A model generated the notes under the pieces. That model searched no databases and was not told where the DNA came from. It saw nothing but the letters and a program-made list of their open reading frames with translations. A DNA stretch of 64,000 bases, taken from NCBI GenBank assembly GCA_000165345.1, contig CM000436.1, positions 1,248,001-1,312,000 on the forward strand, given 5' to 3'. This document shows, piece after piece, positions 1-35,745 of the stretch. Each line of letters begins with the position of its first letter. The stretch's first letter is position 1. Position numbers and translations under genes: made by a program.

Positions 1-1075
1 CTATGTGGAAGAAAAAAAACAAACTAAAAATATAAAATTCAAAAAATAGGCAGAATCAATATAAATAATTTTTAAAATATCACATATTATTGCGTATTTA
101 TGATAACTAGTAGAAGTTCTAGCTGTTTTCTCACCCATTTAGCCTAAATACATTCTTCTGAATATTTTGTTAGGAAAAGTAAAAATTCCAAAATTACAGA
201 ATAAAACAGCTGAATTACTTAAAGTTTTTAAAATATTTTAACTAGTCTCAGATGACATGTATTTTAAATATCAGATATTGAAAACATGGTTTTCTAATAT
301 CAGCTAACCATAAAACAAATTCTGATTAAAAAACCAATATTAAATCAATTAACTTTTAAAAACAATCAAATTTTTGATTAGAGAAATACTACTTCATTAA
401 AAACTTCACCGAAAAATTGTGTAATTGATTAATTACTTAAAACGTGTAGGTCATATACCATTATTAATTGAAAGACAACATAAAAATAAACCAATGTATA
501 AATTGTGTATATTTGCCTATATTAAACATATATATATATTTATATATATGTAGATATGCTAACTTACTTAAATGCTGAAATTGACTTTATGACCTACTGA
601 ATCCATATATTTAAAATACTAGTTTCCGCTTTAAATAAAATAACCAGGTATCTAATAATGAGCCTTATTCACAGGCTTTTATAAACAATAAATGGATATT
701 AAGCTAAAATTATTGAAATTTAATGATTCTAGCCACACAAATAATAATTTAAACTCTGGTCTTGAATAAATATTACCACATCCTTCTAATAACCATTACA
801 ATTTTTAATATTTAAACATCGGAAATTAACAATAACATAACTTATGCTAAAATAAATCATCATTGTTAATCGTTCACATATCTTTATTAAAGTAACTGGT
901 ATATCCAATTAATATCGAAACAAAAAAAAATATGTATATTTTCGCGTATACATATACAGACGATATACATAACCAAATATCAATTCGTACAAAACTCTGG
1001 ATCATCCCTATATAAGCTATTATTCTATCCGGAACCCAATGAATAAAGTCCATATCAATTTCATTATAACCTTAA

Positions 1076-31865: not shown

Positions 31866-32928
31866 ATGACTGTGAATCCCGCATTTATTCCAAAGGAATT
31901 AACAGATGTTTATGCACCTGGAAATTATGACTCAAATTGCAGTATTTTAGCATGCAACTTCCCTACAGGAACAAGCGTAGAAGAATGCTCAAATTTCATG
32001 TCATGGATTGGTCCAGTAGTTTTTGTAGAGGAAGGCCCCTCTCTGCAAAGGGAGGCTAATTTTATTGTAGTTTATTCCAAGCCAGAGTTTGCTGTCAAGG
32101 CTACGCAGGAAGAATTAGTATTTAATGAGGGTTGCAGGGTCCATTGCAGATTTGTGGATGCGAAACCTACAGTATGGGGAAATATCACAAACTTTTTCCA
32201 GGGAATAGACCAACAATATGGAGCGTCAGACCAAATTTCTAACTTTATCAACGATACTGCAGGTATGTTTTCTTTATTCGAAAATGCCTATTTAGGATTA
32301 GTGCTGGTTTTAGTGCTCGAATTAGTGTTCAAATTGAAATTGGGAGTGGTAAGTCTAAATATAAAATGCCTCCATTAATGGCTCAGTAAATCTTAATATT
32401 AAGTATGAGATCCTTGCTATTCCAAGACCAAACCATTCTCTGTAATCTCTATTATGATTACTGAATTTGTGAATGTGATTTGTTCCATCCATAGCAAATA
32501 ATAAGACCTTTAAAGTTCAGATATTTGGGGCCGATTTTCTTCTGATGAATATTATTGTCTGAAGAAAGTTCCTATATTGGACAAAGTCTCTTACTATTTA
32601 GTGATCTCAATCTTGGAATGTTTAAATAAAATTCCTCAAATACTGGCCTTCTTAATTACAAATCCTAATTCGAGGCTAAAACCCTTATATATCCTGAATT
32701 AAAGCATTTCCCACATTTCTTTTATTTAACTTTAACTAACCTCTTTCTTTTATTAAATTATAAATAGCACCTGCATTTTATTCTACTAGTAATCAAGTCA
32801 ATGAGGGAATCCAAAATATCCTTTCTTCTGACGTTTCAAACCAAATGGCTCAAGGATTTTCTAATTTCTCCAACCAAATCAAAGAATCTGTCGCATATGC
32901 AACTAATTCTTTATATTCTCCAATGTAA
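31866..32928 (+). CDS. Hypothetical protein with a Nup35/Nup53-type RRM-like domain. Tentative two-exon model: 31866..32262 and 32768..32928.
   Basis: Exon 1 is track ORF 31866..32378 up to DTAG, followed by a GTATGT donor at 32263. SNCSILACNFPTGTSVEECSNFMSWIGPVVFVEEG...NFIVVYSKPEFAVKATQEELVFNEGCRVHCRFVD is patterned like the Nup53 RRM. The corresponding Nup53 segments are [25 protein letters not shown]...NWMHIRYQSKLQARKAL...GESIMIGVKPC. The unspliced read-through tail (LVLVLVLELVFKLKLG...) looks non-native. The proposed 505-nt intron is long for this genome, and the 54-aa second exon is unverified. Confidence 0.35.
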
Positions 32929-32975
32929 AGAAATGTGAACTCTTTACTTGACTAAATTCTCCTTATTTGTCCAAA

Positions 32976-33999
32976 TTAAGGATAGCTTTTGCTTTTGTAA
33001 AAGTCAAAAATTAATAATATCAATGCAGCTATGATGTTGAAGCACATCAAATAGAACTGATAACTGAAAATAATAGTAATATATGTTTGTTAACTTCTTG
33101 ATAATATATTTTTCTATTAATTCAAACTTACCCTCTGGCTCCATATGCTTCTTCCATCTTTTCTAAGTAAATCTTTGACTCATCCAGATAGTCAACTGCA
33201 TCATTTGCATCTGCTAATATTGTTGAACAAATCTCTGATTGCTCCTGTATTTTTGATGAGAAAAAGCTCATCAGAGATGAAATCTCGTGTAACTGGTTTT
33301 GAGACTCTCTTAAAGCATCCAAGTCAGAAGTAAAATGATTAAGCAATTCTTGAGCGGCTTTCTCCATTTCTGGGGTTAATTCATCCATTCCTGGATCAAG
33401 ATCCTGATCATGATCTAGACTTCCATCATATGAATTATAGCTTTTCTGATCCAAGCTAGAATAATCTATTCCAGCTAATTCTGAGCTAAGATTACTTTTT
33501 CTTTCCCTAGTTTTAAACTTTTGACTCTTAATATACTGAGCTTCGAGCCTCTTAGCCATTCTGGATTGTGCTTGAGATGCTAGCTCTCCTAACAAAGTAT
33601 AAATATTAGAAATTATCATTCTTCTATAAGGATACCTATTTTCATCTTCTTTATTGCTTTCTTCTTGAGTGTTCAATTCTTCTTCTAACTTTAACATTTT
33701 GCTCTGGCAAAACTGAACCTTTTCTGACAAGGAAGAACATTTTTTTTCTTCATTATGTTCACTTTTTTTAGATATAATAGAATCCAAGTCCATTATATCC
33801 CCTTCATCAAGTTCTTTCTTCAATACAATTATATCACTACACTAATTTACTATTTAAACAAAAATCTCTAAAATCACTAATTTTAACTTACTATTTCGTT
33901 CACATCCTTCATAAATTGTGAAATGCTAATATCAATCATCTCAAATTCCAGAGGGTTTGCCCCACTCAATCTTCTGAATTCCTGAGTTCGATCAAACAT
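32976..33999 (-). CDS. Syntaxin 5 / Sed5-like Qa-SNARE. Three-exon model: 33892..33999, 33132..33841, 32976..33063.
   Basis: Exon 1 (ATG at 33999) encodes MFDRTQEFRRLSGANPLEFEMIDISISQFMKDVNEI. The DRTxEF motif is the Sly1/SM-protein-binding N-peptide of syntaxin 5. A GTAAGT..TTAG intron spans 33842..33891. Exon 2 is track ORF 33128..33823, extended 18 nt upstream to 33841. It ends in a SNARE motif, LHEISSLMSFFSSKIQEQSEICSTILADANDAVDYLDESKIYLEKMEEA, with the glutamine layer in IQEQSE. The GTAAGT donor at 33131 coincides with the apparent stop. Exon 3 supplies the tail anchor YQFYLMCFNIIAALILLIFDFYKSKSYP-stop. The product is about 301 aa. Confidence 0.7.
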
Positions 34000-34380: not shown

Positions 34381-35745
34381 ATGAGAAGAAGCTCATTTAG
34401 TAGATCCCCTTCTCCGGAAGTGAGAAGTCCAATGGATTCACTTAAAAAAGAGTCAATTTCTGAAATCACATCTCTAACTAAAGCAGATCAAGAAAACAAG
34501 ATTTTAATTGTTGAAACAAAAGAACAGAAAAATTCATTAATTAACGAACCCGTATTAGCATCTAGCCAAGATAACTTGGAATGCAAAGACGAAATAAAGC
34601 AAGAAATTATGAAAAAGGATAATAAAATAGAACAGAATATTGATTTTGAGGAAATTGATGATATCTTTGCGTCAGATACTGAAGAATCTAAATCAAAATA
34701 TATTAAACCATCAGGGAACCCAGGTTACAATAAAAGATTAGAATGTGACGATGATGATGGATATTACGTGAGCTATATTGGAGAAATTATTGGAAACAGG
34801 TACAAAGTCTCCAGTAATAGCACTGGTAAAGGTATGTTTAGCAGTGTTGTTAAATGTGTTGATATGGAAACTCAAAATGAAGTAGCTATCAAGATTATTA
34901 GAATTAACGATATGATGAGAAGTACTGGAGAGAAAGAGTATTCATTTGTTAAAAAGTTTAAAGGGGCTCCAAATATTGTCCAGGTTCAAGGAACATTTAT
35001 GCATCAAAACCACCTTTGTATAGTCTTTGAGTGGTTACATGGATCCTTGAAAAATTGTATCCACCATTTTTCCAAACATAACATTAGAAAAACACAAGAT
35101 TTGGCCTTCCAAATATTCCAGGGATTGAAAATAATTCACGAGAAAGGCTTGGTACATGCGGACCTTAAGCCAGAAAATATCTTAATAGACTCTGAAAGGA
35201 AAACCATAAGAATTAGTGATTTTGGAAGTATGCACTTTACAACAGATGCCTCCCCTGCATGTTACTTAGTTAGTAGATTCTATAGAGCTCCAGAAATTAT
35301 TTTGGGATGTATATCTTATGGACAGCCTATTGACATCTGGAGTATTGGTTGTGTACTTTATGAGTGTTTTACTGGAGATATTATGTTCAAAGGAAGAACA
35401 AATAATGATATGATCAAGCTAATTATGGAGTACAGAGGAAACTTTCCAAAAAGGCTTCTTAACCAAGGAGTATTCACAAAATCCCATTTTTCTGAGTGTT
35501 TGACGCAATTCAAATGGATCAACACACAAGGAATGTTACAAATTATTAAGAATTATACTGCAAACAAAAATATATACAATAATTTAATGGATTCAGTCAA
35601 ATCCTCTAATATCGTTTACTCTGAAACTGAGCAAACTCTTATTCGGAGACTCTCCAATCTTATTGAGAAATGTCTTATTATTGACCCTAAAAAGAGAATC
35701 TCTGCAAAGGAAGCTCTGGAACATTCCTTTTTTCAACTCAAGTAG
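34381..35745 (+). CDS. PRP4-type CMGC protein kinase (pre-mRNA processing kinase PRP4/PRPF4B-like)
   Basis: The kinase core has HADLKPENILI and DFG. The activation and P+1 region ACYLVSRFYRAPEIILGCISYGQPIDIWSIGCVLYECFTGDIMFKGRTNNDMIKLIMEYRGNFPKR closely follows PRP4K YLVSRFYRAPEIILG...[39 protein letters not shown]. Confidence 0.7.
   Translation: MRRSSFSRSPSPEVRSPMDSLKKESISEITSLTKADQENKILIVETKEQKNSLINEPVLASSQDNLECKDEIKQEIMKKDNKIEQNIDFEEIDDIFASDTEESKSKYIKPSGNPGYNKRLECDDDDGYYVSYIGEIIGNRYKVSSNSTGKGMFSSVVKCVDMETQNEVAIKIIRINDMMRSTGEKEYSFVKKFKGAPNIVQVQGTFMHQNHLCIVFEWLHGSLKNCIHHFSKHNIRKTQDLAFQIFQGLKIIHEKGLVHADLKPENILIDSERKTIRISDFGSMHFTTDASPACYLVSRFYRAPEIILGCISYGQPIDIWSIGCVLYECFTGDIMFKGRTNNDMIKLIMEYRGNFPKRLLNQGVFTKSHFSECLTQFKWINTQGMLQIIKNYTANKNIYNNLMDSVKSSNIVYSETEQTLIRRLSNLIEKCLIIDPKKRISAKEALEHSFFQLK

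Follow-up and report, generated by a model that had tools for sequence, protein, structure and literature searches.

Can cgd8_5170, a gene on the minus strand of Cryptosporidium parvum chromosome 8, be read from a single open reading frame, and which member of the syntaxin family does it encode? The gene lies in a 64,000-nucleotide stretch of contig CM000436.1 (the window, 31% GC; all coordinates below are window positions), in which the bacterial genetic code yields an open reading frame at 33128..33823. As a first-pass annotation of this DNA had pointed out, this frame is incomplete: its 231 amino acids begin at a TTG codon, with no ATG, and lack both the N-terminus and a membrane anchor. 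That annotation had proposed that three spliced exons restore the N-terminal peptide and the tail anchor, and that the product is syntaxin 5. Our analysis upholds the first proposal and replaces the second. We regard it as likely that cgd8_5170 is a three-exon gene encoding a 301-residue Cryptosporidium orthologue of syntaxin 18 (Ufe1, SYP81), a Qa-SNARE of the endoplasmic reticulum (ER).

The locus was assigned to C. parvum cgd8_5170 because a deposited C. parvum protein (P0079; CPHLJ_8g5170 / CPCDC_8g5170) shows 100% identity to the translation of exons 1 and 2. Cryptosporidium is also the source of the proteins that best match the region. The gene is flanked by a divergent protein kinase gene (34381-35745, Pfam Pkinase) and, on the other side, by a small convergent gene. 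When the minus strand was read and the pieces were assembled, all of the exon and intron coordinates proposed earlier proved to be correct. The features of the gene are as follows:

33892..33999, minus strand: exon 1 with the start codon (ATG 33999-33997), 108 nt, 36 codons; GTAAGT follows at 33891
33999-33976, minus strand: N-peptide MFDRTQEF, in exon 1, after which helix Ha begins
33842..33891, minus strand: intron 1, 50 nt, GTAAGT...TAG, phase 0, 18% GC
33132..33841, minus strand: exon 2, 710 nt, encoding the remainder of the Habc-like three-helix region, the linker and the SNARE motif
residues about 147-192, minus strand: disordered linker, in exon 2
33134..33373, minus strand: SNARE-motif helix, residues 193-272, with the Q237 codon (33241-33239) in the invariant KIQEQSE
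33064..33131, minus strand: intron 2, 68 nt, GTAAGT...CAG after a T-rich tract, phase 2, 18% GC
32976..33063, minus strand: exon 3, 88 nt, which finishes codon 273 and then encodes YQFYLMCFNIIAALILLIFDFYKSKSYP, with the stop codon TAA at 32978-32976
32997..33062, minus strand: tail-anchor transmembrane segment, residues about 274-295, with the family-invariant LL..D motif

Spliced in this manner, the open reading frame comprises 906 nt and encodes 301 amino acids followed by a stop codon. The TAA that appears to terminate the gene (33130-33128) had been placed inside a splice donor, and its coordinates indeed put it within the GTAAGT of intron 2 (33131-33126). Reading through intron 1 encounters six in-frame stops, and reading through intron 2 encounters two. 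We compared the orthologous loci from C. muris, C. bovis, C. ubiquitum, C. serpentis, C. ryanae, C. canis and the chipmunk genotype I. All seven are syntenic, with the kinase on one flank, and the three-exon architecture is present at 7/7 loci. Across species, the exon carrying the N-peptide is 96-111 nt long with a GTAAGT or GTGAGT donor, and intron 1 is always in phase 0. The "stop" of the main exon is found in or beside a GT donor (GTAAGT, GTAAGA, GTATGT or GTACGT), and intron 2 is always in phase 2. In 8/8 species the last exon measures exactly 88 nt, and its product conforms to the pattern ..(Y/F)Q.Y.....F....A..ILL.(F/Y)D(F/Y)(Y/F)(K/R)S..YP, ending at the stop codon. In the seven other species, intron 1 ranges from 46 to 106 nt and intron 2 from 50 to 148 nt; the introns are mostly not a multiple of three in length, and most contain in-frame stops. 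Substitutions in exon 3, summed over 28 species pairs in the proposed frame, are distributed over codon positions 1, 2 and 3 as 193:174:452. This third-position excess indicates purifying selection on a coding sequence. On enumeration of alternative splice-site combinations, a product that is consistent across species was obtained only from GTAAGT-type donors at homologous positions. Exon 1 and its junction are also present in deposited protein models (P0001, P0079, P0008, P0085 and others), and one of these, the 296-aa "putative integral membrane protein" POM83515.1 (P0085) from C. meleagridis UKMEL1, corresponds exactly to the three-exon product. Metagenome contigs were scanned for the exon 2/3 junction and, separately, for the adjacent exon 2 sequence, with no match to either; since even the exon sequence was not matched, the organism is seemingly absent from these contigs and the result says nothing on splicing. 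Judged from these genomic comparisons, the conservation of the three-exon structure across the genus is far beyond chance expectation, and the comparative case for three-exon splicing is strong.

Most of the deposited models end at the intron 2 donor, which could be taken to mean that intron 2 is normally retained, such that the main product would be a 273-residue protein without an anchor and the downstream 88 nt would be untranslated. We consider this to be very unlikely, given that the length, phase and amino acids of exon 3 are kept from C. parvum to C. muris across an intron of such variable length, that exon 3 carries the third-position excess, and that homologues in other phyla have tail anchors to which the encoded tail can be aligned. 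Furthermore, it is established in SNARE biology that a Qa-SNARE without an anchor cannot drive membrane fusion.

The 301-residue product has the layout of a Qa-SNARE: an N-peptide, a Habc bundle, a linker, a SNARE motif with a 0-layer glutamine, and a tail anchor. The N-terminal three-helix Habc bundle, which is among the features of the Qa-SNARE (syntaxin) superfamily, is present. The 88-nt exon encodes the hydrophobic anchor, as had been suggested: the Kyte-Doolittle mean over 19 residues reaches 2.32 at residues 276-294 and is at most 0.75 elsewhere. Thus, the sole hydrophobic segment of the protein is the exon 3 tail, which ends seven residues before the C-terminus and requires the splicing of intron 2. 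An AlphaFold2 model of an orthologue contains the transmembrane helix at 267-293 with a predicted local distance difference test (pLDDT) score of 88-94, and the SNARE-motif helix is predicted at a pLDDT of 77-90. Q237, in IQEQSE, lies about 37 residues ahead of the anchor. In an alignment of 20 family sequences, E236 and Q237 are invariant, as is F8 of the N-peptide, and the exon 3 tail aligns column for column with the anchors of Vitrella, Cardiosporidium and Pfam-defined syntaxin 18 proteins, the L, L and D being invariant. This Asp (Asp293, codon 33006-33008) is situated near the luminal end of the anchor, in LL..D[FWY], and is found in 20/20 sequences, including Pfam-defined syntaxin 18. 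A conserved charged residue within a tail anchor is unusual.

Class membership emerges at the level of family profiles. The spliced protein alone has no match to Pfam SNARE or syntaxin models and no match in the PDB, and a Cryptosporidium-only profile likewise gave nothing significant. A profile from the wider family matched the SNARE motifs of syntaxins 17, 1A, 13 and 7 and of Sso1 in the PDB (E values from 1e-4 to 7e-3), with nearly full-length alignments to syntaxin 1A. In these alignments Q237 falls on the 0-layer glutamine of the PDB syntaxins, which agrees with the earlier reading of IQEQSE as the glutamine layer of a Qa-SNARE. No SNARE-domain chain of syntaxin 18/Ufe1 or syntaxin 5/Sed5 was among the PDB matches. 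Since the matches are to syntaxin 17, syntaxin 1A and others, they establish the Qa class and not the subfamily. Taken together, the sequence comparisons make membership of the Qa-syntaxin class well supported.

To which subfamily, then, does the protein belong? When 1.84 billion representative proteins were searched exhaustively with a HMMER profile, 69 hits were obtained, 66 of them from outside Cryptosporidium, including sequences from Vitrella brassicaformis, Cardiosporidium, Besnoitia, Neospora and Cystoisospora and many marine sequences. The full-length relatives possess the whole architecture, including an N-terminal D(R/V/L)T..F peptide. They share a motif in helix Hc (HR.GVVS.LY), a SNARE core (..DLD.I..TQ.K..E.S.L...FA.KV.EQ.E) and a tail (...SYRFYVV.WF....LL..D(F/W/Y)). 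The Pfam SNARE domain was matched by 32/66 of these relatives. The sole subfamily-specific domain among them was Syntaxin-18_N, in 7/66; Syntaxin-5_N was found in 0/66. Four proteins reach or exceed the Pfam gathering score of 30.6 bits for Syntaxin-18_N (P0025, 58.4; P0038, 43.9; P0072, 35.4; P0067, 30.7), and the tails of these four are of the classical ...LLFLDW(F/Y)S type. A word-indexed search with the wide family profile, which covered 8000 candidates, yielded Cryptosporidium proteins only and no named syntaxin 18.

The relatives include a large group of Ala-rich environmental proteins of ~280 aa (P0014-P0017, P0020, P0023, P0028 and others, from Logan, JGI and ENA contigs of 1-15 kb), with MDRTA(D/E)F N-termini and ...SYRFYVVCWF..LL.FD(F/Y)IDAR.S.I tails. 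This group is nearer to the Cryptosporidium protein than classical syntaxin 18 is, and its members are probably from other alveolates.

We next compared the two candidate subfamilies directly. A hidden Markov model (HMM) of syntaxin 18 was built from four Pfam-defined syntaxin 18 proteins. The syntaxin 5 set comprised 120 vertebrate proteins, retrieved with a human STX5 sequence (99% identical to the database entry) as bait; nearly all have PF11416 and/or PF05739, and most have both. The syntaxin 18 HMM scored the window protein at 73.5 bits (E value 2e-15 when scaled to 1.84e9 sequences), with 66-76 bits for all nine Cryptosporidium orthologues, whereas the syntaxin 5 HMM scored the window protein at -1.4 bits. 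In the reverse direction, a Cryptosporidium HMM scored syntaxin 18 proteins at 37-78 bits and syntaxin 5 proteins at 1-15 bits. Profile-profile comparison with hhalign gave a probability of 99.3% for syntaxin 18 (E value 2e-20) over 266 columns, which start at helix Ha and run through the whole tail anchor. For syntaxin 5 the probability was 1.3%, over 50 columns that cover the DRTQEF N-peptide and part of Ha alone.

The identification as a syntaxin 5/Sed5 orthologue, that is, as a cis-Golgi Qa-SNARE for anterograde ER-to-Golgi fusion, had been drawn from the N-peptide, which was taken to be specific to syntaxin 5. MFDRTQEF does match the DRTQEF of vertebrate syntaxin 5, the 50 aligned columns lie at the syntaxin 5 N-terminus, and the protein is a tail-anchored Qa-SNARE of 301 residues. 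A DRTxEF-type peptide is nevertheless present in Pfam-defined syntaxin 18 proteins (P0025, MADRTKDF; P0038, VDRTAEF), and this Sly1-binding N-terminal region is documented for syntaxin 18/Ufe1 as well (PMC6721632). The peptide therefore does not discriminate between the two. Thus, the Sly1-type N-peptide proposed for exon 1 stands, and its specificity for syntaxin 5 does not. It is the sole feature that the window protein has in common with syntaxin 5, and alignment of the 301-residue product to syntaxin 5 profiles recovered this region alone. Syntaxin 5 is among the best-conserved SNAREs, and failing all Pfam SNARE and syntaxin models would be unusual for it. With no Syntaxin-5_N or SNARE match in Pfam, no syntaxin 5 protein among the 69 hits of the exhaustive search, and HMM scores in both directions and hhalign probabilities that favor syntaxin 18, we regard the syntaxin 5 identification as extremely improbable. 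More generally, these results warn that a DRTxEF peptide alone is insufficient to call a protein syntaxin 5.

Several points weigh against our assignment. The splicing case was built entirely from genomic sequence and deposited protein models. The comparison of subfamilies was not fully symmetric, as the syntaxin 18 proteins had been picked from among the hits of the Cryptosporidium profile, and the syntaxin 5 set was limited to vertebrates. No separate syntaxin 5 gene emerged for C. parvum, though its genome was not searched for one; in Toxoplasma, TgStx18 (ER, essential) and TgStx5 (cis-Golgi) are both present (PMC8406237). Most subunits of the Dsl1/NRZ tether are reportedly missing from Apicomplexa, with a lone Dsl1/ZW10 homologue in C. 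parvum (PMC3785458). Finally, hmmscan of eight Cryptosporidium proteins found no match to Syntaxin-18_N (PF10496), SNARE or Syntaxin-5_N (PF11416). Because the Pfam Syntaxin-18_N and SNARE models miss the Cryptosporidium proteins, the link to syntaxin 18 is one at the profile level; within the 99.3% hhalign match, residues 23-100 align to the N-domain columns of Pfam-defined syntaxin 18.

These observations also bear on a different possibility, namely a Qa-SNARE paralogue specific to the alveolate (myzozoan) lineage, which arose from syntaxin 18, acts at another compartment or with other partners, and is not its functional equivalent. Vitrella P0013, Cardiosporidium P0019, the coccidian P0021, P0024 and P0037, and environmental sequences do group by a SYRFYVV.WF...LL..D[FY]I tail, but their similarity grades continuously into Pfam-defined syntaxin 18. 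Most members of this SYRFY group have no Pfam Syntaxin-18_N match, although one of them, P0023, has a sub-threshold match and scores 91 bits with the syntaxin 18 HMM. The scarcity of Dsl1-complex subunits in Apicomplexa (PMC3785458) would fit a paralogue with an altered role. However, the 69 hits contain no second, more canonical syntaxin 18-like Cryptosporidium protein, and Toxoplasma is reported to have a single, ER-localized syntaxin 18 (PMC8406237). We consider a paralogue of this type unlikely, and favor orthology to syntaxin 18.

If the Cryptosporidium protein is syntaxin 18, a mechanism can be proposed by analogy with the family. The tail anchor would insert the protein post-translationally into the ER membrane, and the N-terminal DRTxEF peptide, with its invariant F8, would dock the SM protein Sly1. 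The SNARE motif would pair with Sec20 (Qb), a Use1-like Qc protein and Sec22 (R) (PMC6721632, PMC8406237), and the resulting SNARE complex would fuse Golgi-derived COPI vesicles with the ER. The corrected model and the syntaxin 18 assignment would thereby identify what is likely the Qa-SNARE for retrograde fusion at the ER in a parasite whose trafficking system is very reduced. More speculatively, alveolates including Cryptosporidium could carry a strongly diverged syntaxin 18 lineage that runs Golgi-to-ER fusion without a canonical Dsl1/NRZ complex or, alternatively, regulated retention of intron 2 could generate an anchor-less inhibitory isoform; we think these ideas quite unlikely to hold. 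The marks of such a diverged lineage may be the SYRFY...LL..D[FY] anchor, the conserved intramembrane Asp and the lack of a recognizable Syntaxin-18_N domain. If real, this lineage would imply a different tethering or regulatory mechanism.

How has the gene been annotated to date? In C. parvum Iowa II (XP_627396) and Iowa-ATCC (CPATCC_004396) it is a single-exon model of 221 aa beginning at an internal Met, and in more recent C. parvum and C. hominis assemblies it is a two-exon model of 273 aa that ends in ...GARG and has no anchor. Every C. parvum or C. hominis model that we recovered lacks the anchor, and from the older ones the Sly1-binding peptide is missing as well; the names given to these models are "hypothetical protein" or "t-SNARE domain protein". 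Of the deposited models that we examined, C. meleagridis P0085 is the sole one in which intron 2 is annotated. At least six further Cryptosporidium annotations repeat the 3'-end error; the models of C. muris, C. serpentis and C. bovis end at the intron 2 donor. Individual models go wrong in other ways. In C. ubiquitum P0004 the 3' end is spliced into the antisense of the last exon of the neighboring gene, C. ryanae P0009 reads through a 140-nt intron 2 that by chance has no in-frame stop, and C. canis P0007 has an unrelated C-terminal tail. A collection of 15 billion proteins contains no exact copy of the full-length spliced product from C. parvum, C. muris, C. bovis or C. ubiquitum.

It is documented that C. 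parvum annotation tends to miss introns: on reannotation, the proportion of intron-bearing genes rose from 4.3% to 10.8%, with introns of mean length 99 nt and 22% GC (PMC4637869). In that study cgd8_5170 appears in a divergence table alone (identity 0.986, dN/dS 0.16), and literature searches for cgd8_5170, or for "Cryptosporidium parvum" with "syntaxin 5", found no main-text mention. The three-exon structure is already on record in one sister species, C. meleagridis. The corrected model is thus a sound and useful annotation fix of an ordinary kind, and not surprising biology. In practical terms, the anchor-less models would be missed in screens for transmembrane segments or tail anchors, and they would place a C-terminal epitope tag at the wrong codon. 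A protein built from the 221-aa or 273-aa model could not act as a fusogenic t-SNARE.

The convergent neighbor (31866-32928, plus strand) is seemingly also truncated when viewed as a single open reading frame. The frame at 31866..32378, of 170 aa, continues into an odd GLVLVLVLELVFKLKLG tail. An intron of 505 nt, long for this genome, is defined by a GTATGT donor at 32263 and an acceptor ending at 32767. The spliced product is 185 aa, ending in ...IKESVAYATNSLYSPM, a length that equals that of the annotated C. muris and C. serpentis neighbors. This 185-aa product has no Pfam match. The ends of the two convergent genes are 47 nt apart in C. parvum (32928-32976), and in C. muris the stop codons are 11 nt apart (L001 3484-3498). 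Consequently, the 3' untranslated regions must overlap or be extremely short. Because the convergent genes end so close together, the 90 nt past the syntaxin stop are as conserved as coding sequence.

We finally compared the protein with known systems. Its nearest counterpart with the same splice product, including the tail anchor, is C. meleagridis POM83515.1, an orthologue with 94% identity, which differs in being five residues shorter in the Habc region and in not being named a SNARE or syntaxin. Syntaxin 5/Sed5p (Qa.II, cis-Golgi) is likewise a Qa-SNARE with a tail anchor, resembles the window protein in length and has a DRTxEF Sly1-binding peptide at its N-terminus, but there is no detectable similarity past the N-peptide and the window protein has no Syntaxin-5_N domain. 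The syntaxin 18/Ufe1p/SYP81 group (Qa.I ER SNAREs, including TgStx18) differs from it beyond the Pfam matches noted above. The Cryptosporidium tail, YQFY.M.F..IAA.ILL.FDFYKS..YP, departs from the ...SFSLLFLDW of classical syntaxin 18, and syntaxin 18 elsewhere partners the Dsl1/NRZ tether, which is reported to be largely missing in Apicomplexa. With this group, the Cryptosporidium protein shares the D-x-T-x-x-F N-peptide, the Habc region, the linker, the Q-SNARE motif and a tail anchor ending in LL..D[WFY], with reciprocal HMM scores of 66-76 bits.
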